Shown in pieces: positions 38,593-53,928 of a DNA stretch of 64,000 bases. The stretch covers positions 6,236-70,235 of the forward strand of contig DASQAK010000052.1 of NCBI GenBank assembly GCA_035635755.1. The letters run 5' to 3'. This DNA is from Candidatus Methylomirabilota bacterium. Its GTDB lineage: Bacteria > Methylomirabilota > Methylomirabilia > Rokubacteriales > CSP1-6. The stretch's first letter is position 1. Every line of letters begins with the position of its first letter. A model generated the notes under the pieces. It had not been told where the DNA came from. It did not search any database and saw only the letters and a list, made by a program, of their open reading frames with translations. The position numbers were made by a program, and so were the translations under genes.

Positions 38593-40188
38593 TCACATCG
38601 ACCGCCGGCGGAACACGCCGTATTCCATCCCCAGCGCGCCCTGAACCACGCTGACCTGCTCGAACCGCTCGCTCAGCAGCTTCCGGATGAGTCGGGCCAC
38701 CTCTGGTCGGTACCCGTCCAGGGCATCGAGGGAAGCGGGCGACACGATGGCGTACTGGACGTCCCGACCAAGCCAGCGCTCCACGTCCGCCGCCGACCAG
38801 GCACCGCTCCGGTGCAGAATCGCCTCGTCGGCGCCAGGGGGCGCCACGGTGCCGCCGGGCGACATCAGTTGCTGGACATAGGCCTGGAGCCCGGCAAGGT
38901 AGATCGGCATCGGCTGCGCGAAGAGGAATACCTTCGTTCCCGCAGGCACCAGTGCTCGAAGATCCGAGGCCGCCCGGTCGGTCATCTCGATCGGGTCCTG
39001 TTTGAACGGTGTCGGGATCGGCCGGGGCATGAGCGGGTGGCGGACGGCCACCACGGAGAGCACGAGACCGGCAGCGAGAGAAGCCGCGACGATTCCACGC
39101 GTGAGCCGATCCATATCGGCGCGGGCGAGGCAAGTCGCGCTTACGACCCCCAGCACCACGGCGAAGAGGGGGGCGAACGAGGGAAAGTATGCCGGCACGA
39201 TCTTGAAGTTCATGCGGAGCATGACGAAGTGCCAGGCCAGGATCCAGAGCCAGAGGCCGCCTATCACGCCCAGTCCGCGGCGCCACGGCATCCATGCCGG
39301 TCCTCTTCCGCGAAGCGCCAGCAGGCCACTTGCAACGAGAAGGCCCCCCGCCGTCAGCGTCCAGGACTCGTACCGTCGCGCGAAGATCACGAACGACCAG
39401 ATCTGCTCCTGCCGCCCCGCCTCCCGCACGGGGGAGAATTCGAGAATGGAGCGGTAGCCCAGAGGCTCCACGAAGCCGCGCAGCACGGGCACGTGCGCCA
39501 GGAGCTTCAGATGCGTGGTATCGGCGGCGAGAAACAGCGCGGGAGGAACCACGGCGATGAGCGCGACGGCGAGACGCTCGGCGCGGCCTCGGGCCACGCT
39601 GAAGGCCCACACGAGAAAGAACGGCAGGGACGGGAAAAGATTCGTTCGAGTAAAGAAGAGGAGCGACGCGATGGTCATCCCGATCGCTCCTCGCCACCGC
39701 ATCTCCTCTTTCAGCAACACCCACACGGCCGTCATCAGGACGAGGGCCGTCATGGAATGGTACGTGGCCGTCGCGAAGTAGCCGACCAGGGTGCCTTGCG
39801 TCGCGAGGAGCAGTCCTGCGAGCACCCCCGCCGTGTCGCCGCCAACTCTGCGCGCCACGGCCACCGTGGCCAGCAGCGCGACGAGTCCTATCCCCAGCGA
39901 GACGAGGCGCGCCGCCCAGAGACTCCGCCCGAAGATCTCCTGTGACGCTCCGAGCACGTAGAAGGGCAACGGCATACGCTGCCCCGTCATCTCGTCCTGG
40001 AACAGAGCGATCTGCCCGGTGAGGGCCATCTGGCCGAGAGCGAGAAAGGACGACTCGTCATCCCACGTGATGAGGCTGCGAGAGTAGAAGACGCCGATCG
40101 CCAGATACACGACAACCATCACGGCCACGGCCCCCCGGAACGTCATCGAGGACATCCCGGGCGGTGGCGGAGTCGCGGCCTCGGTCAT
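38593..40188 (-). CDS. GT-C-fold membrane glycosyltransferase (PMT/ArnT-like, GT39/GT83-type)
   Basis: 531 aa, >10 predicted TM helices. N-terminal loop motif 'LFQDEMTGQRMPLPFY' is shared with the paralogue at 56644..58269. Confidence 0.6.
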   Translation of the reverse strand: MTEAATPPPPGMSSMTFRGAVAVMVVVYLAIGVFYSRSLITWDDESSFLALGQMALTGQIALFQDEMTGQRMPLPFYVLGASQEIFGRSLWAARLVSLGIGLVALLATVAVARRVGGDTAGVLAGLLLATQGTLVGYFATATYHSMTALVLMTAVWVLLKEEMRWRGAIGMTIASLLFFTRTNLFPSLPFFLVWAFSVARGRAERLAVALIAVVPPALFLAADTTHLKLLAHVPVLRGFVEPLGYRSILEFSPVREAGRQEQIWSFVIFARRYESWTLTAGGLLVASGLLALRGRGPAWMPWRRGLGVIGGLWLWILAWHFVMLRMNFKIVPAYFPSFAPLFAVVLGVVSATCLARADMDRLTRGIVAASLAAGLVLSVVAVRHPLMPRPIPTPFKQDPIEMTDRAASDLRALVPAGTKVFLFAQPMPIYLAGLQAYVQQLMSPGGTVAPPGADEAILHRSGAWSAADVERWLGRDVQYAIVSPASLDALDGYRPEVARLIRKLLSERFEQVSVVQGALGMEYGVFRRRSM

Positions 40189-41351
40189 TCGGTGAAACGC
40201 TTCTGCACCAGCCGCGCGTCGATGGGAACCGAGCGAAGCACGTCGACGATGCGCGGCGCGGCGTGGCCGTCACCGTAGGGATTGGCGGCCGCGCGGGCCC
40301 GGGCGCGGAAGGCCGGCGCCTGGGCCGCCTCGATGCCCCGCAAGATGTCCTCGCGCGAGGGCTCGACGTCGATGACGTTGGCCCCCCGGAGCCGTCCGCG
40401 CTGGCGCGAGCCCACGTTGACCACGGGCAGCCCGAAGGAAGGCGCCTCGATGAGACCGCTCGAGGAATTGCCGATCATGAGATCGGCGTGGCGCAGCAGC
40501 GAGAGGTAGGGCCGCTCGCCCAGGCTCTTGGCGAGCCGGCAGCGCCGGGAATGGCGCCCCGCGAACTCCTCGATCCGCTCGATGATGAGCCGCCCCGACG
40601 TGTCGGCATTGGGATACGTGATGACGATGAAGCCGTCCGTCTTCTCGATCGCGGCCAGGAGCTCGTCGATGTGGGCGGCGGTGTCCCGGTACTCGAGGGT
40701 GACGGGATGAAAGGTGACGAGGAGCCAGGGCCCCGCCTCGGGCAACCTGAGCTCGCGGGCCAGCGCCGCGCGGGACAGCGGCTCCGTGGTGGCGAGGCGG
40801 TCGAGGCCGGGTGCGCCGACGGAGTGGATGCGCCACGGCTCCTCCCCCATGGCGGCGATGCGCCTCGCATGGGGCTCCGCCGAGGCGAAATGCAGATGCG
40901 CGAGCTTGGTGATCGCATGGCGGATCTGATTGTCCATCGCCCCTTCGGAGAGCTCGCCGCCGTGGATGTGCGCCACGGGGAGGGCAAAGGGAAGCGCGGC
41001 CACCGCCGCCGCGAGCATCTCGAAGCGGTCGCCCAGGACCACGACCACATCCGGGCGTATGCGCGCGAACACCTCTCCGAAGCCCGCCACTCCTCGCCCC
41101 GTGGCGGCCGCCACCGCCTCCGGCGTGTCGTCGCCCCCGAGCATCTCGACGCGGGCGGAGATGGGAAAGCCGTCCGCCTCGATGTCGCGTACCGTCAGGC
41201 CAAACTCGCTTGCCAAATGCATGCCCGCCACCAGGAGAAGCAGCTCGAGGTCGGGCGCGCGCCGCAGCGCCTCGAGCACCGGCCGCAGGTGGCCGTAGTC
41301 CGAGCGGCTGACCGTGACCACGCCGATGCGCCTCGCGGCCCCCTCCGTCAT
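40185..41351 (-). CDS. UDP-N-acetylglucosamine 2-epimerase family (NeuC-like, hydrolysing type)
   Basis: 388 aa; 'VAHIHGGELSEGAMDNQIRHAITKLAHLHF'. ATGA overlaps on both sides. Confidence 0.8.
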   Translation of the reverse strand: MTEGAARRIGVVTVSRSDYGHLRPVLEALRRAPDLELLLLVAGMHLASEFGLTVRDIEADGFPISARVEMLGGDDTPEAVAAATGRGVAGFGEVFARIRPDVVVVLGDRFEMLAAAVAALPFALPVAHIHGGELSEGAMDNQIRHAITKLAHLHFASAEPHARRIAAMGEEPWRIHSVGAPGLDRLATTEPLSRAALARELRLPEAGPWLLVTFHPVTLEYRDTAAHIDELLAAIEKTDGFIVITYPNADTSGRLIIERIEEFAGRHSRRCRLAKSLGERPYLSLLRHADLMIGNSSSGLIEAPSFGLPVVNVGSRQRGRLRGANVIDVEPSREDILRGIEAAQAPAFRARARAAANPYGDGHAAPRIVDVLRSVPIDARLVQKRFTE

Positions 41352-42397
41352 GGCTCCGCCAGCGCCTCCCAGCCGATCACTTCGTCGGCGGCGATATCGC
41401 GAGCGAGCGGGCGCCCGATCGCCTTGTCCAGATCGGCGGGGGAGATGCCCGTGCCGGGCCGCTTGATCAGGACGTCTTCCGCCCCGAGCCGCGCGCCCGC
41501 CCTGAGTGCCCGCGCCGCCACCAGGCTCTTCCGCGCCACCCGGCGGGTGTCGAGCTCCGACGGCATGGGGCGCTTGGTCCCGTCACCGAGCGCGGACTCC
41601 ACGGCCCGGATGGCCCGGACCATGGCCGCGAACTCGACGGGATCGAGGGAGGCGCGATGATCGGGACCGGGCAGGGTCTTGTCGAGCGTCAGGTGCTTCT
41701 CGATGATGGCGGCGCCGCGCGCGGCTGCCGCCACCGCGATCTCGATGCCCAGCGTGTGATCGGAGAAGCCCACGGGACAGCCGCATCGCGCGGCGAGGGC
41801 ATCCATGGCGCGCAGGTTGACCTCGGCGGCGGGAGCGGGATACGCGGAGAGACAGTGGAGCACGGCCAGGGGCGGATTGCCGGCGGCCCGGATGGCCGCC
41901 ACCGCTTGCTCGACTTCGTCCAGGCTCGACATGCCGGTGGACAGGATGATGGGACGGCCCTTGGATGCGAGGTGGCGCAGCAGCGGGAGATTGGTGATCT
42001 CCCCCGACGGCACCTTGAAGAGGGCGACCCCGAGCCTGTCCAGTACATCTGCGCTCTCCTCGTCGAAGGGCGCCGAGAAGAACGTGAGCCCGCGCTTCGC
42101 GGCCCGGTCCTTGAGCTCCGCCAGCACCGCCGTGGCGAGCTCGAGTCGCGCGAGCATGTCGCGCTGGCTCTCGTCCGCCCCCGTGGTCTCGACCTGGTAT
42201 CCCGCCTTGGGCGCGCCGCGGGTCAGCAAGGCGTCGACGCGAAACGTCTGGAACTTGACGGCGTCCGCCCCGCTCTCGGCCGCGGCGTCCACCAGGCGGC
42301 GGGCGAGCGCCGGATCGCCATTGTGATTCACGCCGGCCTCGGCCACGATGTAGATACGCCCGCCCGCGCCGAAGCAGGGCAGGCCCGGCGCGGTCAC
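41348..42397 (-). CDS. N-acylneuraminate-9-phosphate / nonulosonic acid synthase family (NeuB/LegI/PseI-like) with C-terminal SAF domain
   Basis: 'IYIVAEAGVNHNGDPALARRLVDAAAESGADAVKFQTF'; C-terminal SAF/AFP-like domain. GTGA overlap with upstream stop. Confidence 0.85.
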   Translation of the reverse strand: MTAPGLPCFGAGGRIYIVAEAGVNHNGDPALARRLVDAAAESGADAVKFQTFRVDALLTRGAPKAGYQVETTGADESQRDMLARLELATAVLAELKDRAAKRGLTFFSAPFDEESADVLDRLGVALFKVPSGEITNLPLLRHLASKGRPIILSTGMSSLDEVEQAVAAIRAAGNPPLAVLHCLSAYPAPAAEVNLRAMDALAARCGCPVGFSDHTLGIEIAVAAAARGAAIIEKHLTLDKTLPGPDHRASLDPVEFAAMVRAIRAVESALGDGTKRPMPSELDTRRVARKSLVAARALRAGARLGAEDVLIKRPGTGISPADLDKAIGRPLARDIAADEVIGWEALAEP

Positions 42398-44340
42398 GAT
42401 CCGCTCCGCGCCGCGCTGATCTCCTCGGCCAATGCCAGCACCCGCTCCCCCAGGCGGCCGTCGACGGGATGAACGTAGCGCGCGGAGAAGGCGCGCCCCC
42501 GCTCGATCATGACCGCCCGCTCCGCGGGATTCCAGAGCACGACGCGGAGCGTGTCCGCGAGGGCCGCGGCCTTGCCCAGGTCCACCCGCCGGACCGCGCC
42601 CGCGCTGACATAGGGCGGCATGTACTCGCCCTCGAAGTCCTTGCCGGCCGTCTGCACGGCCACCACCGGGCAGCCCAGGGCCATGGCCTCGAGGCCGGCC
42701 ATGGACGTGACCATGACGGCGGCGTCCGCGGCCCCGAAGAGGCGATGGATGTCGTAGTCCTTGGTCAGGAGGGCCTCCGGCCATCCCCACTCGCCCACCT
42801 GCTCGCGCAGACGCTCGAGATCCTCGTTCGGATGGACCTTGACGATGAAGTCCACGTCGCCCAGCTGACGCGCAGCCGCCACCATGGTCCGGTAGAAGCC
42901 TTCTCTCTCCTGCGCCGAGAAGAGCAGCGAGACGTACTTGGACACGAAGACCACGAGGGGGCGGCCGGGGGCGAGGCTGAAGTCGTGGCGGACCTCCTCG
43001 CGCAGCCGCCCCGTGGGCACCAATCGCGCGGCGTTGGAGCGGGGGTCGCCGACCACCGACACCCGTCCCGCCTCGATGCCGAGCTCCCTGACCAGGCTCT
43101 CCCGGAGATGCTCGCCGATGACGACGAGGCGGTCGCCGATATCGAAGCGGCTGGTCAGATCGCGAGGAAGGACGAGAGTTCCCGAGAAGAGCAACGAGGG
43201 AATGCCATTCGCGCGGGCGACGAAGGCCATGGCCCGCTCGCCGAGGCGCCGGTCACTCGTGACGACGAGGGCGTCCGGACGTGTGGCCCTGACGGCACGG
43301 TACGCGGCTTCCTGGCACAGGAGGGCAGCCAGGAGGCTCGCCTCGGAGCCGGCCAGGAATGGCCGGAGGACAGGCCAGAGCGAGACGCCTCGCCACGACA
43401 CTCGCTCCGCGAGCTCCGGATCGCGCTCGGCACGTCGGAGCGCGCGGCGGAACAGCGGCCGGAACCGTCGGACGAGCCGCGCCGCCGTGGCCTGGGGAAG
43501 ATAGTCCATGAGATAAGCCGTAGGCACACCCGCTGCGCTGAGGTCGCTGACACGGGCCGAGAGCTCCGGGTCCTCGTTCGACTGCGCGACGAGACGGGGC
43601 GACGCGCCGGCCGAGCGCACGGCCTCGATCAGAGGGTCCACGAGCAGATGATGGCGGCTCCGGCACGTCACGAAGAGGATGCGCCGGCCCTCGGCGCGCT
43701 GAGAGACGGGGGCATGCCGCTCCTGACGGAGCAGCTGCTGGAGATTGATCCGATCCTCTCGCGGAAAGAGCGCCGCGTAGGCCCGCGCCGCGAGCTGCGG
43801 CAGGGGCGAGCGCGAGACGCCGCGCACCCCCAGGCCGCGGGCCCGCGCCACGAGGCGGGCCACCTGCTCCGTCATCGAGGCGCCGCTCAGCAGCCGCAGC
43901 TGATCGGGCTTCACCTCGTCGAGCACCCGGTTGATGATACCGAGCCGCTCCACCACCTCGAGCCGGACCCGAAGTCTCTTGCCCACCGTGAGCAGATCAG
44001 GCAGCCAGACGCCGCGGTACGAGAGATCGAGCTCGTCCGACGTCGCCTGCCACCAGCCGGTGACGAGGCGTTGCGTCAGCGATTCGAGCTCTCGCGAGTC
44101 GACGGCGTAGGCTTCCTCGTCGTAGTAGTGCACGGCGACCGTGGGGGGAATGGCCGAGGCGTCCACGAGCTGGCGGGCGCCCAGCACGGTCACCTCATGG
44201 TCCTCGATCAGGCGCTTGACCGCGCGGGTCACGGCCCGCCGGTACCAGTGGGCATAGGCGAGAAAGGATCGACGCACCATGGGCCGGCGAAACTCGCCGA
44301 TGCTCCGGGTCGCCTCGGTGACGAGGAGGAGCCGGATCAC
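42394..44340 (-). CDS. large two-domain GT-B-like transferase with HP motif (TagF/KpsC/sialyltransferase-like); candidate ulosonic-acid or glycerophosphate transferase
   Basis: C-terminal ~649 aa of ORF 42394..45036. 'FIVKVHPNED' HP motif typical of CDP-/CMP-dependent GT-B transferases. N-terminal 230 aa of the ORF rejected as artefact. Confidence 0.45.
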   Translation of the reverse strand: MIRLLLVTEATRSIGEFRRPMVRRSFLAYAHWYRRAVTRAVKRLIEDHEVTVLGARQLVDASAIPPTVAVHYYDEEAYAVDSRELESLTQRLVTGWWQATSDELDLSYRGVWLPDLLTVGKRLRVRLEVVERLGIINRVLDEVKPDQLRLLSGASMTEQVARLVARARGLGVRGVSRSPLPQLAARAYAALFPREDRINLQQLLRQERHAPVSQRAEGRRILFVTCRSRHHLLVDPLIEAVRSAGASPRLVAQSNEDPELSARVSDLSAAGVPTAYLMDYLPQATAARLVRRFRPLFRRALRRAERDPELAERVSWRGVSLWPVLRPFLAGSEASLLAALLCQEAAYRAVRATRPDALVVTSDRRLGERAMAFVARANGIPSLLFSGTLVLPRDLTSRFDIGDRLVVIGEHLRESLVRELGIEAGRVSVVGDPRSNAARLVPTGRLREEVRHDFSLAPGRPLVVFVSKYVSLLFSAQEREGFYRTMVAAARQLGDVDFIVKVHPNEDLERLREQVGEWGWPEALLTKDYDIHRLFGAADAAVMVTSMAGLEAMALGCPVVAVQTAGKDFEGEYMPPYVSAGAVRRVDLGKAAALADTLRVVLWNPAERAVMIERGRAFSARYVHPVDGRLGERVLALAEEISAARSGS

Positions 44341-44960
44341 GGACGGCCTCCGCGGGGACGCGCGGGAACGCCCATCACCGTTTCGCCCGCCGGCACATCC
44401 GAGATCACCACGGCGCCGGCGGCGACTTCGGCTTCCTTCCCCACCGTCAGGTTCGGCAGCACGGTTGCCCGGGCGCCGAGGAAGCCGCCCGCCTCGATGG
44501 TGACGCCGCCGCAGAGGACGACGCCGGGCGAGAGGTAGGCGTGCGCTCCGATGCGGCAGTCGTGCTCGACGATGACTCCGCTGTAGATGACGGCATTGTC
44601 CCCGACCTCGACCGACGCGCCGAGCACGCCGCCCGCGAACACCACGACGCCTTCGCCGAGGTGGCAGGTGCGTGACAGCACGGCGCGCGGGTGCACCAGG
44701 GTGGCGACCACGATACCCGAGGCCTTGAGAAGCTGGAAGAGCGCGGCGCGACGGTCGAGGGCGGCGTTGCCGATGCCGACCACGGCGGCATCCATGGCGC
44801 GGGCCGCCGCCAGCGCGGTCAGGTTCTCGTCCCGGCCCAGAACCGACGGGCCGGGCGAGCGATCGGTGAAGCCGGCGACGGTCCAGCCGCACTCGACCGC
44901 GAGATCGGCTACGGCCCGGCCGTGGCCTCCAGCGCCCAGGATCAAGAGTCGCTTGGCCAC
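44337..44960 (-). CDS. sugar N-acetyltransferase, NeuD/PglD/LegH family (hexapeptide repeat)
   Basis: 207 aa; 'LLILGAGGHGRAV' N-terminal Rossmann-like and C-terminal left-handed beta-helix repeats. Confidence 0.8.
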   Translation of the reverse strand: MAKRLLILGAGGHGRAVADLAVECGWTVAGFTDRSPGPSVLGRDENLTALAAARAMDAAVVGIGNAALDRRAALFQLLKASGIVVATLVHPRAVLSRTCHLGEGVVVFAGGVLGASVEVGDNAVIYSGVIVEHDCRIGAHAYLSPGVVLCGGVTIEAGGFLGARATVLPNLTVGKEAEVAAGAVVISDVPAGETVMGVPARPRGGRP

Positions 44961-44966
44961 GGCTCG

Positions 44967-45692
44967 CTAGCTCCGGCCCGGCGCGAGGGCCGCGCGACCT
45001 TCTCGCAAGAGCAGCTCGGCGAGGAGGAAATCCCACTCCGTGTCGATGTTCACGGAGGCCTCGAAATCCATCACGATGCCGCGGTTGTCCTCACCGAGGA
45101 TGTGCCCGTGGCGCATCAGGGTCTCGTAGCGCGTCACGTACACCGCGCCGGAGGGCTGATAGACGGGCGGCGCGTCCTGGCGACGCACATAGGTGTGCCC
45201 CTCGGGGAAGAGCGCCACCGTGCGGTCCCCGTCGAGCGTCTTCATGAAGTATGGATGATACGAGGCCTCCGAGAGCGTCTGGGCCGAGTCGGCGCCCGTC
45301 TCGGCGACCTTCCGGATCGTCGCGTCGATCTCGGCGCCCCGGCGGAACGGCGAGGTCGGCTGAAGGGTCACGATCACGTCGGGCTTCACGCCCGCCGACG
45401 ACTCGAGCCAGCGCACCGCGTGCTGGAGGACGCCGAGCATCCCCGCCTCGTCGGTGGCGAGCCCCGCCGGCCGCAGGAACGGGACGGGGAGACCCTGACG
45501 CTCGGCCTCGGCGGCGATCTCCTCGCTATCCGTGGAGACGATGAAGCGCGTGAGCAGCGCGGACTCGCGGGCGGAGGCGATGGCCTGCCCCAGGAGCGAG
45601 AGCGCGCCGAGCTTGCGCAGGTTCTTGCCCGGCAGGCCCTTGGAGCCGCCGCGCGCGGGAATGACCCCGAAGGCGTACGGCGTCGCCGTCAT
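44967..45692 (-). CDS. acylneuraminate cytidylyltransferase family (CMP-nonulosonic acid synthetase, NeuA-like)
   Basis: 241 aa; 'FGVIPARGGSKGLPGKNL' signature. Confidence 0.85.
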   Translation of the reverse strand: MTATPYAFGVIPARGGSKGLPGKNLRKLGALSLLGQAIASARESALLTRFIVSTDSEEIAAEAERQGLPVPFLRPAGLATDEAGMLGVLQHAVRWLESSAGVKPDVIVTLQPTSPFRRGAEIDATIRKVAETGADSAQTLSEASYHPYFMKTLDGDRTVALFPEGHTYVRRQDAPPVYQPSGAVYVTRYETLMRHGHILGEDNRGIVMDFEASVNIDTEWDFLLAELLLREGRAALAPGRS

Positions 45693-45695
45693 CCG

Positions 45696-46679
45696 CTAGA
45701 CCCGGACCCAGCGCCGCTCCGCCGAGGCCTTCACGGCGGCGTCGATCACGCGCATGGTCTTGAGCCCGTCCCAGCCGTCGCAGGCGGGGGAGGCCTCGCC
45801 GCGGATGCAGGCCAGGAAGTGGCGGGCCTCCTCGACGTACATGTCGTTGAGCTGGCAGGCGAACGGATAGATCTCCCACCGGTTCGCCCTGGGATCGAAG
45901 ACCCGGATCTCGTTCTCGAATCGCCGCCACTGGATCACGCCCTCTTCGCCCATCAGCTCGAAGTGGCTGTGCACGTTCCAGGCAAAGAGGTTCATATGGA
46001 TGTTGCCCACCGTGCCCGAGGCGAAGCGTACGGTCAGGTCGGCGATGTCGTCGGTGGTGATCTCGAGGCTCGAGACGCGGTCGACCACCGCGCTGACCTC
46101 GGTGATCTCGCCGCAGAGCCACCGCATAAAGTCGATGGCATGGCTCTCGTCGAGCACGCAGCCACCGCCCTGCTTGGCGTCGGCCATGTAGAACGTGCGG
46201 TAGTCCTTGCCGGGATAGCGCGTGGTCAGGTGGTAGGCGTACTCGGTCCGCGCCGCGCGCACGGCCCCGATGCGCCCTTCCTTGAGCAGCTTCTCGGCGA
46301 GCAGCATGGGCGGCCAGTAGCGCCAGTTGTAGGCGGTGAGTACCTTGAGGCCCTTGGCGTCGCAGAGCTTGAGGAGGTCTTCCACGCCGTCCACGGACTG
46401 GGCGAAGGGCTTTTCGACCATGAGGTGCGCGCCGCGCTCGGCGGCCTGGCGGCCCAGGGCGAGGTGCGAGTCGGGCGGAGTGCAGATCACGGCGCCGTCG
46501 GCGCCCGCGAGGGCGGCTTCCGCCGTGGGCGCGATGGCCGCCCAGGGAAAATCCTTGGCCGCGGCCTCGCGCTGCGCGGGGGCGGCATCGTAGGCGGCGA
46601 GGCTCTCGACGCCGACCGTCCGGAAATTTCCGAGATGCCGGCGGCCGATCGAGCCCAGTCCGAGGACGGCGAGCTTCAT
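45696..46679 (-). CDS. Gfo/Idh/MocA-family oxidoreductase
   Basis: From 'MKLAVLGLGSIGRRH'; 'EKPFA'. ATGA overlap with upstream stop. Confidence 0.8.
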   Translation of the reverse strand: MKLAVLGLGSIGRRHLGNFRTVGVESLAAYDAAPAQREAAAKDFPWAAIAPTAEAALAGADGAVICTPPDSHLALGRQAAERGAHLMVEKPFAQSVDGVEDLLKLCDAKGLKVLTAYNWRYWPPMLLAEKLLKEGRIGAVRAARTEYAYHLTTRYPGKDYRTFYMADAKQGGGCVLDESHAIDFMRWLCGEITEVSAVVDRVSSLEITTDDIADLTVRFASGTVGNIHMNLFAWNVHSHFELMGEEGVIQWRRFENEIRVFDPRANRWEIYPFACQLNDMYVEEARHFLACIRGEASPACDGWDGLKTMRVIDAAVKASAERRWVRV

Positions 46680-48220
46680 CTCTTGGTCTCCAGGACGAGC
46701 CGCGGGGCGGGGGGGGGCGGCGGGTCCGCGGCGTGCAGGCGGTTCCATTCCTTCTCGTAGCGCTCGATGCGGGCGATGTCCCGCCGGACCATCAGCTCAC
46801 GCAGCCCGTAGAGCTCGACGGCGTTGAACTTCTTGGAGATGACGGCGGTGACCCGCGTGGCATCGCCCAGGTCCAGCAGAAATGCTTCGAGGTCTCCGTC
46901 GTACTGGTCGAGGATGCGCTGCTTGTTCGCGTAGTACCACTCCGTTCCCGGATACGGGGTGGCGAAGAAGGGCTTGACGTTGAGGCCGAGGCGATTCCAG
47001 GCGCGGATGTTGTCCTTGAGGCTGTCGAAGTCCTCGTCGGGGAAGCCCATCATCTGGTTGGGGATGGGCCGGATACCCGCCTCGAGCGTCCACTTGAGCG
47101 AGCGCTCGTTGGTCTCGGGAGTGGCGCCCTTGCCGATGGTTTTCATCACGCGCGCGGAGAAGCTCTCGTAGCCGTAGACGAGATGCGAGCACCCCGCCTG
47201 CTTGATGGCTCTCAACACCTCGGGCGAGCAGAGGGTGGCGTGGCTGGTGCCGCCCCAGTGGACGCCACTGCACTTCTCGGGGTCGTGGGGGACGCCGTCA
47301 CGCACACACTGGGGCTGCAGGCCCTCCTCGATCCAGAGCTTTGCGATATCCGTCAGCCACTTCTTGCCCGAGAACTGGTGCATGGTCATGAGGTTCTCGT
47401 CGAGGAAGCCGATGAAGTCCACCCCGAAGCGCTCGCGAGCGTACTTGACGAGGTTGACGACGTAGCGCGGGCTGTGGAAGCGGATCTTGCGGTCGTAGGT
47501 GAAGGCGACGTCGTTCTCGCCCTCCGCGTTCTCCTGGTGCTGCATGTCGCCCGCGATGCCCAGGTGGAAGCAGAAGCGGCAGATGAGCGAGCAGCCGTAG
47601 CTGGCGTTGATGTCGAGGCGCCGCTGGGCGAGCATGCCCTCCTCGGAGTAGAGCGCCATGCTGTTCTTGAAGTAGACCTCGAGCGGGAAGAGCTCCCAGG
47701 CCGGATAGGGCAGGCTGTCGAGATCCATGAGGAGGGGCTGCTCCGGGTTCAGCCTGGTCTTGCCCGAGGCGTCGCGCCAGATCAGCCCGGGAACGGCCGC
47801 CCAGTCGCGATTCCCCCCGTCCACCCGGCGAAGCAGCTCGGGAAAGGACACGAAGGCCTCGCCCACCACGCCCACGTCTATCCGAGGCAGGAAGCGCATG
47901 ATGTCGTGAGGCATGCTCGTGAGGAAGCCGCCCCCCGCCACCACCAGCGCCTGCGGGCAAAGCTCCCTGGCCATCTCGACGATCTGCTTGATCGAGCGGT
48001 ACGCCGTGGTGATGCCGCCGAGCGCGACCACGTCCCAGTGGTCCGCCTGCAGCACCTGGGCGATGACGGCATCCGAGGGGCGCCAGGCATTGTGGTCGTA
48101 CACCTGCACCTTGTGTCCCTGGCCCACCACGATGGCGGCGAGGAGGGCCATGCCGTAGGGCACATGACGCGGATCGTCCTCCTCGCGCATCAGCGGATTG
48201 ACGAACAGCACTTTAGCCAT
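46676..48220 (-). CDS. B12-binding domain radical SAM protein (class B radical SAM; putative methyltransferase)
   Basis: From 'MAKVLFVNP' (AAGGA RBS). N-terminal cobalamin-binding domain. 'YGCSLICRFCFH' CxxxCxxC radical SAM cluster motif. Confidence 0.8.
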   Translation of the reverse strand: MAKVLFVNPLMREEDDPRHVPYGMALLAAIVVGQGHKVQVYDHNAWRPSDAVIAQVLQADHWDVVALGGITTAYRSIKQIVEMARELCPQALVVAGGGFLTSMPHDIMRFLPRIDVGVVGEAFVSFPELLRRVDGGNRDWAAVPGLIWRDASGKTRLNPEQPLLMDLDSLPYPAWELFPLEVYFKNSMALYSEEGMLAQRRLDINASYGCSLICRFCFHLGIAGDMQHQENAEGENDVAFTYDRKIRFHSPRYVVNLVKYARERFGVDFIGFLDENLMTMHQFSGKKWLTDIAKLWIEEGLQPQCVRDGVPHDPEKCSGVHWGGTSHATLCSPEVLRAIKQAGCSHLVYGYESFSARVMKTIGKGATPETNERSLKWTLEAGIRPIPNQMMGFPDEDFDSLKDNIRAWNRLGLNVKPFFATPYPGTEWYYANKQRILDQYDGDLEAFLLDLGDATRVTAVISKKFNAVELYGLRELMVRRDIARIERYEKEWNRLHAADPPPPPAPRLVLETKR

Positions 48221-49226
48221 GATGGTCCTTCGCGGCGGTCTCGAGGAATGCGTCCAGAGTGGACGTGATGACGCCATCGCCGAAGAGCAGGCCGCCCTCG
48301 GTGCAGTTGAAGGTCTGGCAATCGGCATCGCGGGCCATCTCGAGAAAGACCTCGCGAAACCAATGATAGGTCGGGTCGCTGAACCACACTTCGCGCGTCA
48401 CTGGATTCTCGGTGTGGATGAAGGCCTCGCGGTGCCGGGCCTTCAGGAGGTCGACGAGTTCCCGGAAGTATTGCGTCTTCTCGTACGGCGTGTCCGGAGC
48501 ATATCCCAAATCGATGCCCACGAGTCCGATGCGCCGCTTCCCCAGCACGGCATGCGTGAGCACCCATGCCGAGGTGCCGACGTTGCCGCCGCCATTGAGA
48601 CAGGGCAGGCCGTTCATCTCCCAGAGACGACGCGAATGGCTACCGGGCTTGTCATAGTCGTCGTACATCGGGTTCCACCAGTAGAGTTCCATGCGCGTCT
48701 GCTGGCAACGCCGCACCACCGCTGGCGCCGCGGAGGTCGCCGCGGCCACCTTGATCTTCGGCCCGTACGTATCGACGAGGTCGACCAGCGTGCTGTTGGC
48801 GCCAAGCTCATCCTCGCCATGGACGGAATCCATCTCCTGGCGGCGGAAGTAATCGTCAGCGGGGACCTCTGTCAGCCTCGGGTCGCCGAACCAGCGGACG
48901 ATACGGTCCGGATGCGGGTCCACGCTCACCACAACATGAGGCACGACGCCCGCCCGCAAGCAAGCTCCGAGCGCCCCGTCAGCGGCAACGATGGTGCCGG
49001 GGAAGTTTGAGTCGCGCAGCCGCTCGATGCTTTGGCGTCGCCGAAGGCTTGGCCCAGCGCCCACGACGACGGCGGTATCCCCCGTGCCGAGCTGCGCGTC
49101 ACGAAGCTCGAGAACAGAGCGTCCGATGTATGGCCGATTGTCCTCGGCGTTCTTGAGGCCTTCGCTCGCCACATGCTCGAACGTGGCCGCCTCAAGCTCG
49201 CGGGCGATCTTTCTTCCCAGCTCCAT
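48213..49226 (-). CDS. DUF115 / MptE-like (motility-accessory-factor Maf-like) protein; putative nonulosonic-acid transferase
   Basis: 337 aa; 'TAVVVGAGPSLRR...TIVAADGA...VVVSVDPHP' matches the DUF115 Rossmann-like core. Confidence 0.55.
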   Translation of the reverse strand: MELGRKIARELEAATFEHVASEGLKNAEDNRPYIGRSVLELRDAQLGTGDTAVVVGAGPSLRRRQSIERLRDSNFPGTIVAADGALGACLRAGVVPHVVVSVDPHPDRIVRWFGDPRLTEVPADDYFRRQEMDSVHGEDELGANSTLVDLVDTYGPKIKVAAATSAAPAVVRRCQQTRMELYWWNPMYDDYDKPGSHSRRLWEMNGLPCLNGGGNVGTSAWVLTHAVLGKRRIGLVGIDLGYAPDTPYEKTQYFRELVDLLKARHREAFIHTENPVTREVWFSDPTYHWFREVFLEMARDADCQTFNCTEGGLLFGDGVITSTLDAFLETAAKDHHG

Positions 49227-49563
49227 CCTGACGCCCTTTCGCTGTTCTATCTTCCGTATCCGCTCGGCTCGCTGTCCTGCTGGTCGCCTCGCTTGCGGCT
49301 GCGGCTCCTCCGGCGGGACGCGCTTTCGCTGGTCCGTCTTCCGTATCCGCTCGGCTCGCTGTCCTGCTGGTCGCCTCGCCTGCGGCTGCGGCTCCTCCGG
49401 CGGGCTGCGCCTCGCCCTGCCACATCAAACTCTTCTTGCTCACGAAGCAGATGCTGCCTCCGAGACGCGAGAGGGCCTTCTTCTCGAATTCATCGGTCGA
49501 GTTCGCGGCATCCCCCTTGTCCTCGATCTTCGCGTCAACCTTGTAGTTGCCCTTGAGGAACTC
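49192..49563 (-). CDS. small protein (123 aa) with N-terminal charged domain and 2x 29-aa Ala/Gly/Ser/Thr-rich tandem repeats
   Basis: Perfect RBS AAGGAG 7 nt before ATG. Very high GC3 in the N-terminal half. 'MPEFLKGNYKVDAKIEDKGDAANSTDEFEKK...' then repeats 'PAGGAAAAGEATSRTASRADTED'. 3' end overlaps DUF115 start by 35 nt. Missing from the obvious track reading because it lies inside a longer artefactual ORF. Confidence 0.5.
   Translation of the reverse strand, partial: EFLKGNYKVDAKIEDKGDAANSTDEFEKKALSRLGGSICFVSKKSLMWQGEAQPAGGAAAAGEATSRTASRADTEDGPAKARPAGGAAAASEATSRTASRADTEDRTAKGRQDGAGKKDRPRA
49247..49420. repeat. tandem direct repeat, 2 x 87 nt (~95% identical) inside the small ORF
   Basis: 'ccgtatccgctcggctcgctgtcctgctggtcgcctcgc' recurs with 87-nt period. 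In frame (29 aa). Confidence 0.85.
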
Positions 49564-49571
49564 CGGCATGC

Positions 49572-50240
49572 TCAGCTCCTTTTCGCGATCCGCCCGCCCG
49601 TGCTGTCGCCGTTGCCCGCGGGCGAGGCCAGGCGCCTCAGCGTGAGGAACTTCTCGGGCGGCAGACCCAGGCGAACCAGGCCCGCCACGTGCCGTTCGGG
49701 CCTTTCGAAGGTGGCGACGACGATGCCGTCGACATCGGCCATGGGCAGCTCGGAGACCGGCCGCACAGGCAGGCCCAGGAAATGGCCGCCTCCCTCCCCC
49801 GCGAAGATCCCCACCGGCTCCAGCCCGAATTCCTTGAGGGTGAGGTAGGCCAGCTCGGCCGCCTCCCCGGTTCCGCAGAGCGCGATGCGCTTCATCCCGT
49901 TCCGCCCCAGCTGCCCCATGGCCTCCCGGAGATTGTCGCGGGTCCGCCGGTAGAGCTGCAGTGAATGTCCCATGTACTCGTAGGTCAGGCGGGCCTTCTC
50001 CGTAGCGCCCTTGGCCGTGAGCATGTAGCGGAGGCGCTTGCGGGCGGAGGGCTTGCTGGAGAACTCCCGTATCTTGATGAAGCCCTTCCCGGCCAGCCGC
50101 TTCAGATACAGGTTGGTCAGCCCGAGGGCCACGCCCATTCGCGCGGCGAGGGCGCGCTGGGTCAGGGGCGCCCCCTCCTCGATGGCGGTCAGGATCTCGA
50201 GCTCGCGCTCGATGTGACGCTCGATGGCCATGGCGTTCAA
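49572..50240 (-). CDS. winged-helix transcriptional regulator with C-terminal Rossmann-like (Rex-C-like) domain
   Basis: 222 aa; 'LTQRALAARMGVALGLTNLYLKRL' wHTH; C-terminal 'KRIALCGTGEAAELA...GIVVATFERPE'. Confidence 0.55.
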   Translation of the reverse strand: MNAMAIERHIERELEILTAIEEGAPLTQRALAARMGVALGLTNLYLKRLAGKGFIKIREFSSKPSARKRLRYMLTAKGATEKARLTYEYMGHSLQLYRRTRDNLREAMGQLGRNGMKRIALCGTGEAAELAYLTLKEFGLEPVGIFAGEGGGHFLGLPVRPVSELPMADVDGIVVATFERPERHVAGLVRLGLPPEKFLTLRRLASPAGNGDSTGGRIAKRS

Positions 50241-50251
50241 TATATGAACAC
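50232..50251. promoter_or_regulatory. palindromic operator-like motif GGCGTTCAATATATGAACAC overlapping the regulator start codon
   Basis: Inverted repeat GTTCA-N5-TGAAC. Near-identical copy at 51776-51795 at the flippase start. Confidence 0.5.
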
Positions 50252-50275
50252 AGGCAGCGCGCCCGAGTCAAATTG

Positions 50276-51784
50276 CTAGGAGCTCGCTCTCAGGAAGGCC
50301 ACGAACCTCCGCGGGTCCACGAGCTCCCTGGCGTAGCGGAGATTGTCCGTCCCGGTGTGAGTCAGCCAGAGAAACCCCGTGTAGACGCCGAGGGCAAGCA
50401 CGAATCCCCCGGCCAGGGCTGCCGGCTCGGGCGCGCCGGCGGCGGCGAGGCCTTCCCGGGTCGCCTCGTTGACGGCCACGAGCACGGCGAAGCCCGTCAG
50501 GTACGCCACGGTCACCCGCTGGAAGCCGATGCCGGCCAGCTCGCGCGTCCATCGGATGAACACCCAGCAGGGGAAGATCACCATGAGCAGACGCACGGCC
50601 GCCGCCCCCGTGCCACCGAGGGTCGGAACCAGTACCACCATGGCGACAAGATAGACGGCCAGGCGCAGGAGAACGACGCGCACGAACCGTCCGTGCTGAT
50701 CCATGGCGTAGAGGATGAACTGATACGGATTGAAAGCCGTCTGGGCCAGGGCCGCCAGCACCAGGACCATGAGCGGCGCGACTGCGAGAAGGAAGCGCCG
50801 GCCATAGAGCAGGGTGAGGATGGGCTCACGCAGCGCCCAGAGGCAGAAGGCGGCCGGCACCGCGATGAAGAGTAGCCGGTCCATGGCCGCGGCGAAGACC
50901 CGCCGGCTCTCGGCCGCGGCCTCGAGCCCCGGTGTGGCGAAGAGCCGAGAGAGCCGCGACAGGAGAAGCTGGAAGGGATACTGGTTGAGCCGGCCGAGCA
51001 CTTCCCAGAGTGCCCGCGCGACCTGGTAGTACCCGGCGGCGGTCAAGCCCGCCCAGCGCGCGACGAGAACACGATCGAGAGAGTCCTGGAGCATGCCGAT
51101 GGGACTCGTGATGAAGAGCGGGCGCGCGTAGCTCCAGTAGGCCTGAAGCGTCGCGCGATCGGGACGACGCAGCGCGATGCCTCTGCGGAAGACGAGGATG
51201 TACCCGCCCACGAGGATCTCCGTGGCGCCCTCGACCACCAGGGCCGCCGCCACCCAGCGGATGTCGGGTGCCCAGATCAGCACGGTCATCGTCACCGCGA
51301 AGCGGAGCCCCTTGCCGGCCACCTCCGTGATCGCGTGGGCGCTCGCCCACTCCCGTCCCACGAAGGCGACGCTGAGGGTCGCCGCGAGATTCATCAGGAG
51401 CTGGGCGACGAGGACGAAGAGAACGACCTCGAGGGGCACGCTCGTCGGGATCACCAGGGATCCCCAGCGGGCCGCTGCGAGCACGAGGAGGAGGGCCGCG
51501 ACCTGGATCACCAGCTGGAGCGCGGCCATGGTCCCCACGCAGCGGCCGAGGTCGCCGCCTTCCGCCACCCGCTTCTGGTGCGCCTGATTCAAGCCGGGGA
51601 GCAGGAACGCGGTCAGCATCCCCACCAGGCCCATGCTGAAACCCAGGATGCCGAGGGCGTCGGGTCCGAGCCAGCGGGCGATGAGGATCGTGGTGACGAA
51701 GCCGAAGGCGCTGGCGAGACCGGTGCCGAAGAAGAGGACGACAGACTTCCTGCCGAGATTCCCCTCGTGGCTCACGGCGTTCAA
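50276..51784 (-). CDS. polysaccharide biosynthesis protein / oligosaccharide flippase (Wzx-like, MOP superfamily)
   Basis: 502 aa, ~12-14 TM helices. 'RWLGPDALGILGF' typical of PST-family flippases. Confidence 0.75.
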   Translation of the reverse strand: MNAVSHEGNLGRKSVVLFFGTGLASAFGFVTTILIARWLGPDALGILGFSMGLVGMLTAFLLPGLNQAHQKRVAEGGDLGRCVGTMAALQLVIQVAALLLVLAAARWGSLVIPTSVPLEVVLFVLVAQLLMNLAATLSVAFVGREWASAHAITEVAGKGLRFAVTMTVLIWAPDIRWVAAALVVEGATEILVGGYILVFRRGIALRRPDRATLQAYWSYARPLFITSPIGMLQDSLDRVLVARWAGLTAAGYYQVARALWEVLGRLNQYPFQLLLSRLSRLFATPGLEAAAESRRVFAAAMDRLLFIAVPAAFCLWALREPILTLLYGRRFLLAVAPLMVLVLAALAQTAFNPYQFILYAMDQHGRFVRVVLLRLAVYLVAMVVLVPTLGGTGAAAVRLLMVIFPCWVFIRWTRELAGIGFQRVTVAYLTGFAVLVAVNEATREGLAAAGAPEPAALAGGFVLALGVYTGFLWLTHTGTDNLRYARELVDPRRFVAFLRASS

Positions 51785-51795
51785 TAGGTGAACAC
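51776..51795. promoter_or_regulatory. palindromic operator-like motif GGCGTTCAATAGGTGAACAC overlapping the flippase start codon
   Basis: Second copy of the GTTCA-N5-TGAAC palindrome; first 12 nt of both genes identical (TTGAACGCC.TG). Confidence 0.5.
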
Positions 51796-51853
51796 ACCCG
51801 TCGCCGGCCGGTCAAGGTCATTCGGCGCCGGTACTGGGTCAAGTTGCGAGCCA

Positions 51854-51895
51854 GATCAACTCAGCCCTCGCCTCGGGCTGCGCCCTCAGCTCGAA
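51854..51895 (-). repeat. conserved intergenic element, copy A (reverse orientation)
   Basis: Reverse complement 'TTCGAGCTGAGGGCGCAGCCCGAGGCGAGGGCTGAGTTGATC' matches the family consensus. Confidence 0.6.
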
Positions 51896-51975
51896 CCGCC
51901 ACGCCCGAGGGAGCCAGCTTTGCCCAGCGTACGTGGGTGTACGTTGAGCGTTGCTAGCGACCGAGAACGTGGCAT

Positions 51976-52018
51976 TTCGAGCTGAGCGGCCCCGCCGCGA
52001 GGCGAGAGCTGAGTAGAA
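51976..52018 (+). repeat. conserved intergenic element, copy B
   Basis: 'TTCGAGCTGAGCGGCCCCGCCGCGAGGCGAGAGCTGAGTAGAA'. Conserved arms flank a GCGGC-CCC-GCCGC hairpin. Confidence 0.6.
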
Positions 52019-52090
52019 CTGGCGAAGCAAATTGGCCCAGTACCCGGGCTCCTTGGGCCCCACCCGTCCTCGTGATAGGCTTCATGGCCG

Positions 52091-52858
52091 ATGGGCCTGA
52101 GAAAGCTCGCGAAAAGGGTCCTCGGCGTCCAGCGTCAGCCGACGTACTACCTGCCGTGGCTGACGCGCCCTCATCTCCAGTGCGCCCTCGTGCTCAGCAA
52201 CGTCGAGTCGCGCTTCAAGGTCGGCTACAACCGCGGGAGCTTCCCGGTCTCCGTGGTCCAGTACGATGCCGACGGCGCAGTGGCGGGTCGGCACGAGGTG
52301 ACGCTGCCCGACGCGGTGGAGGCCGTCGAGCTGCCCCTGCCGTCCGCTCCGGGCGGATGCGGCTTCGCCACGGTGAGCGGCGAGCGCATCAACTCCGATC
52401 TCTACGTCACCCTCTCCGACGGCCTCGCCTATACCGCGACCCACGGTCGCGGCGAATTCATCGAGCGCTATGCGCTCCCGGGCCGCTTGCTCCTGGCCAT
52501 GATCGGCGGGCTCCTGGGACTGGCGGGCCGAGCCATTCCCGCCTTCGTTCGCCACCAGTACGCGTACGTCGGCCCCGACAGCCGCTCGCACCTGCTCGTG
52601 ATGAACCTGTCCAACGTGACGAACCGCGTCCGCGTCGTGGCCAGCTGGGAGGGGCGCGTCCTTGGCGCCCGGCTTCTGCGGCTCCCTCCCATGGGCTCGA
52701 CGCTCCTGGACATCGGGACGTTTGGCTCAGCCTCGGGCGGCACCGCCACGGAGGTGTGGAGGCTCCGGCTCGAGGGCGCGGCGTGGTTCAACCTGTACGT
52801 CGTCGGCGCGGGTGCCCGGAACCTCGAGGGGCCGCTGTCGCTGATGCATGTCAAATAG
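52091..52858 (+). CDS. hypothetical protein (255 aa), no recognisable family
   Basis: Diverse composition and high GC3; first gene of plus-strand operon. Stop overlaps the next gene's ATG by 11 nt. Confidence 0.5.
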   Translation: MGLRKLAKRVLGVQRQPTYYLPWLTRPHLQCALVLSNVESRFKVGYNRGSFPVSVVQYDADGAVAGRHEVTLPDAVEAVELPLPSAPGGCGFATVSGERINSDLYVTLSDGLAYTATHGRGEFIERYALPGRLLLAMIGGLLGLAGRAIPAFVRHQYAYVGPDSRSHLLVMNLSNVTNRVRVVASWEGRVLGARLLRLPPMGSTLLDIGTFGSASGGTATEVWRLRLEGAAWFNLYVVGAGARNLEGPLSLMHVK

Positions 52859-53561
52859 CGTCTCGGCCCTGCTCTCGGCCACGTTCTACGAGCCGGGCTA
52901 CGACCACCTCGTCGAGCTGGTGCACCAGCGCGATCCGGAGGCGCGCCGCCGGCTCGCCTCCCTCGATCTCTCCGCCTACGGCCCCGACGGCAAGCTGCTC
53001 CTCGAGCATGGCCTGGACACGCGGGAGGAGACGCTGGACCTGGGCGCCCTCCTCGCCCCCACCGCGCGCGAGCACGGGCGCGTCATGGCCGTGTTCGACG
53101 CGCGCTACGAGGAAGACGCGTTTCCCTACCGCCCCCACCACTACGCCTACGTCCATCGCGCGGGCTCCGCCACCCCGGCGCTCTACTATGCCGTCAGCGC
53201 GGCCCTCGGGGGCGTGCCCGACCGGATCGGGGACATGTCCCGCATCAACAACTTCGACACCTATGTCTTCCGTCGCGGGCCCCACGCCGCGCGGTACTCG
53301 GTCATGCTCGGCAACGTCGGCCGCTTCGCTCCCACAGAGGCGCAGGTCTTCGCCTACTACGGTGCCGAGCGCGTGGAGGAGACGGTCCCCCTCGGACCCC
53401 GAGCCCATGCCGAGGTCGCCCTCGCGCCCGAGCGCGGCGGGCAGCCCCTCACCCGCGTCGAGACCAAGTCGCTCTTCCGTCTGGCCGGATACGTGGCCGG
53501 CCGTCGGGACCCCTCGGGCGACCTCGTGCTCTTCGACCACCTCTTCACGTTTTTCAAGTGA
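52848..53561 (+). CDS. hypothetical protein (237 aa), no recognisable family
   Basis: Coding-like composition; His/Tyr-rich segment 'YRPHHYAYVHRAG'. Confidence 0.5.
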   Translation: MSNSVSALLSATFYEPGYDHLVELVHQRDPEARRRLASLDLSAYGPDGKLLLEHGLDTREETLDLGALLAPTAREHGRVMAVFDARYEEDAFPYRPHHYAYVHRAGSATPALYYAVSAALGGVPDRIGDMSRINNFDTYVFRRGPHAARYSVMLGNVGRFAPTEAQVFAYYGAERVEETVPLGPRAHAEVALAPERGGQPLTRVETKSLFRLAGYVAGRRDPSGDLVLFDHLFTFFK

Positions 53562-53647: not shown

Positions 53648-53692
53648 TTCGAGTTGAGCGGTGAAGCCGCGAGACGAGAGCTGAGTGGATTC
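53648..53692 (+). repeat. conserved intergenic element, copy C3 (partial copy C4 at 53693-53717)
   Basis: 'TTCGAGTTGAGCGGTGAAGCCGCGAGACGAGAGCTGAGTGGATTC'; central GCGG-tgaa-GCCGC hairpin. Confidence 0.6.
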
Positions 53693-53712
53693 ACGGCGAG
53701 GCGAGTGCTGAT

Positions 53713-53928
53713 TTGACCCACGGTCCCGAGCCCGAGGACGCGCTCATCCTCTGCTACTGCACCATGTTGACCGTCGGCGAGCTGCGCCGGGCCTGCGCGG
53801 CGGGCGGCTGGCCGCTGCCCGGCAAGGAGAACACCGGCCGGCTGTGCACCGGGTGCCTCGGAGACCTCCTCTACTGTCAGTCGCGATTCGAGAGGCCGCC
53901 GCGAGAGGCCCGGAGCGTCGGCCCGTGA
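53713..53928 (+). CDS. BFD-like [2Fe-2S]-binding mini-protein (71 aa)
   Basis: Cys pattern 'CYC...(35)...CTGC' resembling BFD/[2Fe-2S]-binding domains. TTG start lies inside repeat copy C4. Stop overlaps GTG of next gene (GTGA). Confidence 0.4.
   Translation: MTHGPEPEDALILCYCTMLTVGELRRACAAGGWPLPGKENTGRLCTGCLGDLLYCQSRFERPPREARSVGP

Follow-up and report, generated by a model that had tools for sequence, protein, structure and literature searches.

The 64,000-nucleotide (nt) stretch of contig DASQAK010000052.1 (positions 6,236 to 70,235, forward strand) from a Candidatus Methylomirabilota bacterium, hereafter the window, encodes on its minus strand a small protein of 125 amino acids (aa), which represents a new member, expanded by repeats, of a widespread family of small proteins without a Pfam or NCBIfam model. 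The gene is followed by those for a short MptE-like/DUF115 protein and a B12-binding radical S-adenosylmethionine (SAM) enzyme, and this three-gene cassette was shown to sit in NeuB/NeuC/NeuA-type nonulosonic-acid loci of Rokubacteria and of unrelated lineages. The interesting parts of the small protein are its conserved 52-aa core and an invariant serine, while the tandem repeats that follow the core are the least important.

The small gene and its protein family

On the evidence of its sequence we take the small open reading frame (ORF) to be a genuine, translated gene, because it has 320 close homologues, a near-invariant N-terminus of 52 aa, a substitution bias towards codon position 3, a high core GC content at third codon positions (GC3) and a ribosome-binding site. 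The initial annotation of the window had placed a 123-aa ORF at 49192-49563; the ORF is real, but its ATG lies at 49569, which makes it 6 nt, or two codons, longer. The AAGGAG Shine-Dalgarno sequence described with it was confirmed at 49582-49577, with a spacer of 6 nt rather than 7, and GGAG-type sites were found ahead of most of the homologous ORFs in 24 loci obtained by scanning one genome per GTDB species. The ATG falls 2 nt past the TGA of the upstream MarR-like gene and the stop codon 35 nt inside the MptE-like/DUF115 gene (ATG at 49226), an overlap that had been reported correctly and that was seen in identical form in L005-L010 (L numbers denote the loci compared, L001 being the reverse of window 39192-59569). 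The DUF115 gene has no earlier start: no in-frame start codon was found above 49226, and its homologues, of 333-349 aa, align over 97-100% of the window protein. Translational coupling is likely. As the initial annotation had recognised, a longer mechanical ORF (49192..50271, 359 aa) includes the small ORF as its 3' portion; it crosses the regulator gene in a different frame. The genome-typical GC3 claimed for the N-terminal half was also borne out, with 0.87 over codons 1-52 against 0.79-0.93 in the neighbouring genes and 0.57 in the repeat region. The ORF had been called overlooked, which is only partly correct, as public gene callers list the exact 125-aa protein as a hypothetical protein on 5 contigs. 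No promoter-like, terminator-like or Rfam elements were found between the regulator, the small ORF and the MptE-like gene, and an Rfam scan of 45000-53000 gave no match.

A protein search returned the 320 close homologues at E <= 0.01, all metagenomic or from Rokubacteria/Methylomirabilota. Nearly all of them begin with MPEFLKGNY, which is also the sequence of residues 1-9 in the window; they are 68 to 123 aa long and hardly vary over residues 1-52. When 1.84 billion cluster representatives were searched with a profile, the matches comprised 145 representatives at the 50% identity level (E <= 0.001), mostly of 55-80 aa, and a profile search of a 90%-identity database raised the family to 1,664 proteins (clusters) from diverse metagenomes, typical members having 55-70 aa. 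The earlier statement that the protein had no recognisable homologue is thus overturned. The 24 loci from the GTDB species scan are nearly all labelled Rokubacteria/Methylomirabilota; the reading frame is conserved in these related genomes, most of which encode a 59-70-aa protein with a short acidic tail and no long repeats. Within the 64 kb of the window itself, the family profile gave one match only, at E 1e-24. Rokubacteria-like loci, with small cores of ~60-67% identity, also occur in metagenome-assembled genomes (MAGs) labelled Nitrosotalea, Limnocylindria, Binatia and Acidobacteria (L018, L019, L022 and L024/L030), labels that are likely to reflect binning contamination or mislabelling.

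Family members follow a common plan, in which the motif M-x-x-hydrophobic-L-[KR]-G-N-[YF] at the extreme N-terminus is followed by a variable charged linker of 10-25 residues, then by FExxALxxLGGS[IM][ACV]FV.K...W, represented in the window by residues 28-50 (FEKKALSRLGGSICFVSKKSLMW), and finally by a free, mostly acidic tail. Across 457 unique family sequences, in window numbering, G7, G38 and S39 were 100% conserved, L5 99%, N8, A32 and W50 98%, and the K of LKGN 93%. The invariant serine was encoded by AGY in 78 and by TCN in 29 of 107 loci, and the use of both codon families therefore indicates selection for serine itself. When the conserved blocks were compared with the window, 933, 711 and 1731 differences were counted at codon positions 1, 2 and 3, and the differing codons comprised 1042 synonymous and 1066 nonsynonymous cases. 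These alignments were taken to show that two short motifs are under strong purifying selection. The tail is variable and may shrink to a few residues, and the strongest conservation lies in the internal Gly-Ser block.

Searches with Pfam-A and NCBIfam models gave no match for the window protein or for 64 diverse family members, and a PDB sequence search with the family profile gave none even at E <= 10. An AlphaFold2 (AF2) model of the 60-aa core, built from a 98-sequence alignment, was of low confidence (pLDDT 62, pTM 0.26), with one main helix at residues 24-35 and only one further helix of 4 residues. As modelled, the small protein lacks a confident autonomous fold, and we infer that it would fold on a partner.

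The cassette and its genomic settings

Of the 24 Rokubacteria loci from the GTDB species scan, 22 have the MptE-like gene immediately after the small ORF, with the radical-SAM gene next. Another subfamily was scanned in 80 metagenome loci that had been found with its own subfamily alignment; here the MptE-like gene lay directly downstream in 66 of the 67 loci that extend 400 nt or more beyond the small gene, and in all 35 that extend 2 kb or more the B12 radical-SAM gene came next. Distant loci, with 40-57% GC and small proteins of the LGGSIAFVSKKK or SIGGSMVFVER types, keep the same order of small ORF, MptE-like gene (334-358 aa) and B12 radical-SAM gene (523-528 aa). The cassette order was seen in four distant contexts; the three long ones include NeuB, Epimerase_2, CTP_transf_3, DegT and acetyltransferase genes, and the fourth is a short contig with only the pair of small ORF and MptE-like gene. 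The small gene was thereby shown to be co-encoded with both enzymes; the genes overlap or are closely spaced, and no terminator was detected. The link with the DUF115 and radical-SAM genes, which had been remarked on in the window alone, is stronger than first noted and extends across distant lineages. The expected placement between regulator and DUF115 genes held on the DUF115 side, but the regulator is often not adjacent. A cassette of small protein, short Maf-like protein and B12 radical SAM enzyme was not found described in the searchable literature.

The AF2 model of the MptE-like protein was confident (pLDDT 87, pTM 0.90), and its best structural match in the PDB was the Magnetospirillum Maf glycosyltransferase 5MU5 (E 6.8e-9, 341 aligned columns), followed by the archaeal HPPK/MptE 8SD5 and then by the sialyltransferase ST8SiaIII. 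The sequence match to MptE is restricted to the GxGPS region. Judged from this model, the protein is a minimal Maf-like protein that lacks the flanking acceptor-binding domains of Maf and probably binds a cytidine monophosphate (CMP)-nonulosonic acid.

The radical-SAM gene overlaps the MptE-like gene by 8 nt. Its product reached no curated NCBIfam cut-off (74-88 bits against cut-offs of 282-750), the bit scores being 88 for ApyD, 80 for BchE, 77 for HpnJ and 74 for rSAM_ocin_1, and its nearest solved relative by sequence was TokK (7KDX, E 5e-7). The median identity between the window and the distant lineages (L035-L117) falls from about 62% in the radical SAM enzyme to 45% in the MptE-like protein and 43% in the small core. 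The radical SAM enzyme is unusually conserved between Rokubacteria and these lineages.

On the minus strand of the window the cassette is preceded by genes for a Wzx-like flippase and a MarR/EPS-type regulator, and it is followed by genes for a GFO/IDH/MocA oxidoreductase, a CTP_transf_3 (NeuA-like) protein, a PglD-like acetyltransferase, a 648-aa protein without assigned family, NeuB and an Epimerase_2 (NeuC-like) protein. The coordinates of the cassette, its parts and its flanking genes are collected in the table.

Table. Window coordinates of the small gene, its sequence elements and the genes around it
Feature	Position	Strand	Basis or remark
Small protein gene	49192..49569	minus	ATG at 49569, stop ends at 49192, 125 aa + stop (translation)
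Shine-Dalgarno AAGGAG	49577..49582	minus	6 nt before the small-ORF ATG, within the last codons of the MarR-like gene
Conserved core, residues 1-52: motif 1 L5-K-G-N-Y9, variable acidic linker, motif 2 F28...W50	49414..49569	minus	Alignments
Codons GGC AGC for the invariant Gly38-Ser39	49453..49458	minus	Family column statistics
Repeat copy 1, 87 nt, 29 aa, PAGGAAAAGEATSRTASRADTEDGPAKAR	49318..49404	minus	Tandem Repeats Finder and translation
Repeat copy 2, 87 nt, 29 aa, PAGGAAAASEATSRTASRADTEDRTAKGR	49231..49317	minus	Tandem Repeats Finder and translation
Small-ORF C-terminal tail ...DGAGKKDRPRA*, overlapping the first 35 nt of the MptE-like gene in another frame	49192..49226	minus	
Short MptE-like/DUF115 protein, 337 aa, Maf-like fold	48213..49226	minus	Pfam PF01973
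B12-binding radical SAM enzyme, 514 aa as called on public contigs	46676..48220	minus	Pfam PF02310 + PF04055
MarR/EPS-type winged-helix regulator, 219 aa	49572..50231	minus	Directly upstream in this lineage only
Downstream nonulosonic-acid genes, GFO/IDH/MocA to Epimerase_2 (NeuC-like)	40185..46679	minus	Gene calls and Pfam on L001

The neighbourhoods differ in several respects. The regulator is not adjacent to the small gene in L013-L016, L020, L023 and L029, and in the distant loci the upstream gene is CTP_transf_3 or an acetyltransferase instead. In the window the regulator matches known models over residues 12-106 only, its C-terminal ~110 residues being without a family match. An insert of ~1.9 kb separates the MptE-like and radical-SAM genes in L015 (7075-9095) and at the equivalent place in L025, L027, L030 and L032; its translated ORFs suggest a class-I methyltransferase (~313-344 aa) together with a protein resembling polysaccharide deacetylases. 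In L017 and L022 the small gene comes directly after the flippase gene; as read from the translations, it is followed by two ORFs resembling aminotransferases of DegT type, by a putative glycosyltransferase and by ORFs similar to methyltransferases. Two MAGs carry two copies of the small gene (L027 and L032 in CAVTGC01, L024 and L030 in QHVJ01), and every copy has an MptE-like and a radical-SAM gene of its own nearby, although in L032 only a partial MptE-like match was seen. In L036 and L037, which represent two distant lineages, the cassette lies in a flagellar region with flagellin, FlgK and FlgI genes, and the same region encodes a separate 833-aa MptE-like protein with tetratricopeptide repeats (TPR), of Maf-1 type (L036 17537-20038, L037 873-3374).

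Two further features of the neighbourhood were recorded. The 648-aa protein (42394-44340, minus strand), between the PglD-like acetyltransferase and NeuB, gave no Pfam match or a faint Epimerase_2 match; it recurs at 40-46% identity in several Rokubacteria loci, and other small genes take its place in L005, L008 and L009. On the plus strand at 52091-53561, two adjacent ORFs of 255 aa and 237 aa, without Pfam or NCBIfam match, are divergent from the flippase gene. The pair occupies the same position in L001, L005-L011, L017 and L022, with ~60% identity in L017 and L022.

Candidate functions of the small protein

The reading to which we tentatively lean makes the small protein a dedicated subunit or adaptor of a Maf-like/radical-SAM enzyme pair for sugar tailoring. 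It would dock through both of its motifs onto the Maf-like protein and/or the radical SAM enzyme, and the trio would form one module that tailors (for example by C-methylation) or delivers a CMP-activated nonulosonic acid. The closest functional parallel would be GlfM, a small cis-encoded adaptor needed by Maf-2. GlfM of Shewanella oneidensis (SO_3260) is an 89-aa specificity factor with a predicted four-helix bundle and FliS/FliT-like similarity; it is generally encoded downstream of maf-2 and has an essential conserved Asp77, and Maf-2, which is TPR-less and without an acceptor-binding domain, needs it to bind flagellin (bioRxiv 10.1101/2023.12.03.569772). As in that system, a small soluble protein is encoded here beside a short enzyme of Maf type (DUF115/MptE fold) without an acceptor-binding TPR domain, in loci of pseudaminic- or legionaminic-acid (Pse/Leg) type, and in both cases the small protein is proposed to bind its Maf-type enzyme. 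In contrast to GlfM, however, the present family has ~60 aa, one predicted helix and no confident fold, its gene lies upstream of the Maf-like gene with a B12 radical-SAM gene after it, and it occurs also in non-flagellar polysaccharide loci. The PDB profile search of the family was without any match, and hence without one to FliS/FliT if these are represented there. Judged by its size, its predicted structure, its gene order and the radical-SAM gene that always follows, the family would not belong to GlfM.

A mechanistic analogy is offered by OxsB/OxsA and Fom3, B12 radical SAM enzymes acting on nucleotide-linked substrates, OxsB doing so with a partner protein. In the analogy, a B12 radical SAM enzyme would work with a nucleotide-binding partner on a CMP- or otherwise nucleotide-activated substrate. 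Neither is known to have a third component of ~60 aa.

Several observations weigh against an adaptor role. The low-confidence monomer model of the small protein suits a peptide substrate as well as it suits an adaptor. A Gly-Ser pair that stays invariant through both serine codon families points to a chemically essential hydroxyl, which fits a modification site better than a docking surface, and the best structural match of the Maf-like partner is a protein Ser/Thr O-glycosyltransferase. The literature searched gave no paper that connects radical SAM or B12 enzymes to nonulosonic, legionaminic or pseudaminic acids or to DUF115 proteins. In L017 and L022 (6001-8425) the small gene stands without an adjacent MptE-like or radical-SAM gene, and the metagenome contig L060 (413-1254), alone among the 67 loci with 400 nt or more downstream, lacks the intervening MptE-like gene, its radical-SAM gene beginning ~130 nt after the small gene.

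It is possible, if less probable, that the small protein is itself a substrate or carrier, with Ser39 O-glycosylated by the short Maf-type enzyme and/or with the peptide, or a sugar tethered to it, methylated by the radical SAM enzyme. The product would then be a glycopeptide resembling a ribosomally synthesised and post-translationally modified peptide (RiPP), or an intermediate in peptide-templated sugar tailoring. The acceptor or RiPP-like precursor first proposed for this ORF thus survives as a rival, centred on the invariant Ser39 and not on the repeats. The pairing of Gly38 and Ser39 in all 457 sequences, with serine encoded by AGY and TCN codons, argues for such a role, as do the peptide-like character of the protein, its lack of a confident fold of its own and the likeness of its partner to Maf, a Ser/Thr O-nonulosonic-acid protein transferase. 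As with RiPP precursors that accompany B12 radical SAM C-methyltransferases (proteusin/PoyC-type; rSAM_ocin_1, ApyD), a short peptide gene lies beside a B12 radical-SAM gene, a conserved, recognition-like motif is joined to a variable remainder, and an autonomous fold is lacking. The similarity of the radical SAM enzyme to ApyD and rSAM_ocin_1 is weak, however, lying far under the cut-offs (74-88 bits against 282-750), and is matched by an equally weak similarity to BchE and HpnJ. Unlike a RiPP cluster, the neighbourhoods inspected (L001-L010 and L035-L037, Pfam hits within 10 kb either side) hold no protease, exporter or RiPP recognition element (RRE, PqqD-like), and the cassette stands among genes of sugar-nucleotide biosynthesis. 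In the two MAGs with two copies each small gene has its own locus with both enzymes, which is unlike multi-copy precursors; the gaps are short or the genes overlap, with no terminator after the small gene. The most conserved residues lie in the middle of the peptide, and the variable tail is nearly absent in some members. L036 and L037, moreover, have a separate full-length 833-aa Maf+TPR, a more obvious protein transferase.

A more specific form of the substrate proposal, which we hold to be rather doubtful, treats the ~60-aa protein as a dedicated peptide acceptor or carrier, on whose Ser39 the minimal Maf-type transferase would place a nonulosonic acid before the radical SAM enzyme C-methylates or rearranges the sugar or the peptide. 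If true, this would be an undescribed peptide-templated route of nonulosonic-acid tailoring or a new class of nonulosonic-acid-glycosylated RiPP-like peptides, present in several bacterial lineages. Maf enzymes and their flagellin acceptors offer a further comparison. The 337-aa neighbour has its best structural match in 5MU5, the locus makes nonulosonic acid, and the small protein offers an invariant serine in a hydrophobic context. In contrast to Maf, however, the enzyme here has about half the length (337 against ~630-830 aa) and no flanking domains, the small protein has no flagellin homology, and L036 and L037 keep the separate full-length Maf+TPR for flagellin.

A regulatory function is improbable. 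The small protein would in this case act with the MarR-type regulator, as co-regulator or anti-repressor, or its ORF would be a leader controlling expression of the MptE-like gene. The 2-nt distance from the regulator stop to the small-ORF ATG and the 35-nt overlap with the next gene are in keeping with either form. However, the regulator is not adjacent in many Rokubacteria loci, the distant loci have a CTP_transf_3 or acetyltransferase gene upstream, and the strong conservation at the protein level through synonymous change is unexpected for a mere leader ORF. The messenger RNA (mRNA) of the segment is unremarkable too: the repeat mRNA did not fold better than shuffled sequence (z = +0.88) and showed no unusual structure.

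Three further identities were tried and rejected. The small protein is not a detached piece of a full-length Maf, as the family hidden Markov model gave no match in six-frame translations of L036 and L037, which encode the 833-aa Maf+TPR. Nor is it a Maf acceptor of flagellin type: it has no Pfam flagellin domain, its Ser/Thr-rich repeats are lineage-specific and only the single Ser39 is conserved. A carrier resembling acyl carrier protein (ACP) or LysW was rejected on motifs. ACP is a four-helix bundle with a DSL phosphopantetheine site, and LysW combines a Cys4 zinc ribbon with a C-terminal EDWGE. The small family proteins have no PP-binding or other Pfam match and one cysteine at most, and their W-x-G-[DE] element is internal, with tails of variable length after it.

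The repeat tail and the wider meaning of the cassette

Two 29-aa tandem repeats, as first described, were confirmed by Tandem Repeats Finder as an 87-nt unit present 2.0 times at 49230-49404, with 94% identity and a score of 315. This is by far the strongest tandem repeat of the 64-kb window, all others scoring <=70; three weak short ones, at 10915-10949, 36802-36849 and 53669-53723, have periods of 18, 22 and 27, ~2 copies each and scores of 61-70. The two copies in the small gene differ at 5 nt, of which 4 are nonsynonymous and 1 is synonymous. DNA alignment of the window with two near-identical strains gave a series of alleles. Taking the window allele (125 aa, two copies) as reference, that of L119 encodes 112 aa and has a 39-nt deletion within copy 1 in flanking DNA identical to the window, and that of L118 encodes 96 aa and lacks exactly one 87-nt unit (copy 1), with flanks ~97-98% identical. 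Because the 125-, 112- and 96-aa alleles differ by in-frame indels in otherwise near-identical DNA, the repeat is a translated, in-frame coding repeat of variable copy number, that is, a coding variable-number tandem repeat (VNTR). The frame stays open from the conserved core down to 49192, and translation of the core therefore always takes in the repeats.

In the close homologues, the sequence after W50-x-G52 is a mosaic of modules (QPQASRATPE, AGGAAAAGEATSRTASRADTED, GTAKAR...) of very variable total length, and most of these proteins end in a DGAGKKDRPRA-like tail that overlaps the start of the MptE-like gene. The end of the tail may be semi-conserved owing to the overlapping MptE-like N-terminus (MELGRKIARE). 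Among the 120 homologues listed, the reading frame is kept through the tail, of 16 to 73 aa, in ~94%; the others seem to be frameshifted or chimeric assemblies. No repeats occur in the 59-70-aa proteins that most other Rokubacteria species encode, nor in any distant member, where the tail is rich in Asp, Glu and Lys. The two 29-aa repeats form a lineage-specific and probably disordered C-terminal appendix, which expands and contracts by in-frame slippage and is tolerated, not required. With respect to other frames, the ORF frame at 49231-49404 (minus strand) has a GC3 of only 0.57, and the +2 frame, at 0.82, holds a 58-aa GTG ORF (49247..49423). The +1 frame of the repeat region is open into the MptE-like gene, so that a frameshift would fuse both proteins, and rare fused or frameshifted database entries occur (P0126, P0198 and P0220).

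The initial annotation had described the repeats and proposed an acceptor protein or a RiPP-like precursor; it is very improbable that the repeats themselves form an acceptor region or the hypervariable core of a RiPP. They are rich in Ser and Thr, and the frame is maintained across tails of widely differing length, as such a role would have it. They are missing, however, from most family members, their copy number varies among near-identical strains, and natural alleles of 68-70 aa argue against a need for them; the substitution pattern (4 nonsynonymous to 1 synonymous, GC3 0.57) looks relaxed. That the ORF is spurious, a non-coding tandem repeat between real genes, as the atypical GC3 of the repeat part could suggest, is practically untenable and is refuted for the core by >1,600 homologues and the position-3 bias of the conserved blocks, to which the in-frame indels, the ribosome-binding site and the open frame down to 49192 may be added.

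Of less weight than the core, the repeat tail illustrates an in-frame coding VNTR that varies among environmental strains otherwise nearly identical. Sugars of the nonulosonic-acid group contribute to motility, immune evasion and phage or host recognition. The present analysis reveals a three-gene cassette that is conserved in nonulosonic-acid loci, including some within flagellar glycosylation islands, and whose small component has no Pfam or NCBIfam model. If characterised, the cassette would bring a radical-SAM step and a peptide partner into the biochemistry of nonulosonic acids, and the small protein would serve as an annotation marker for the module.

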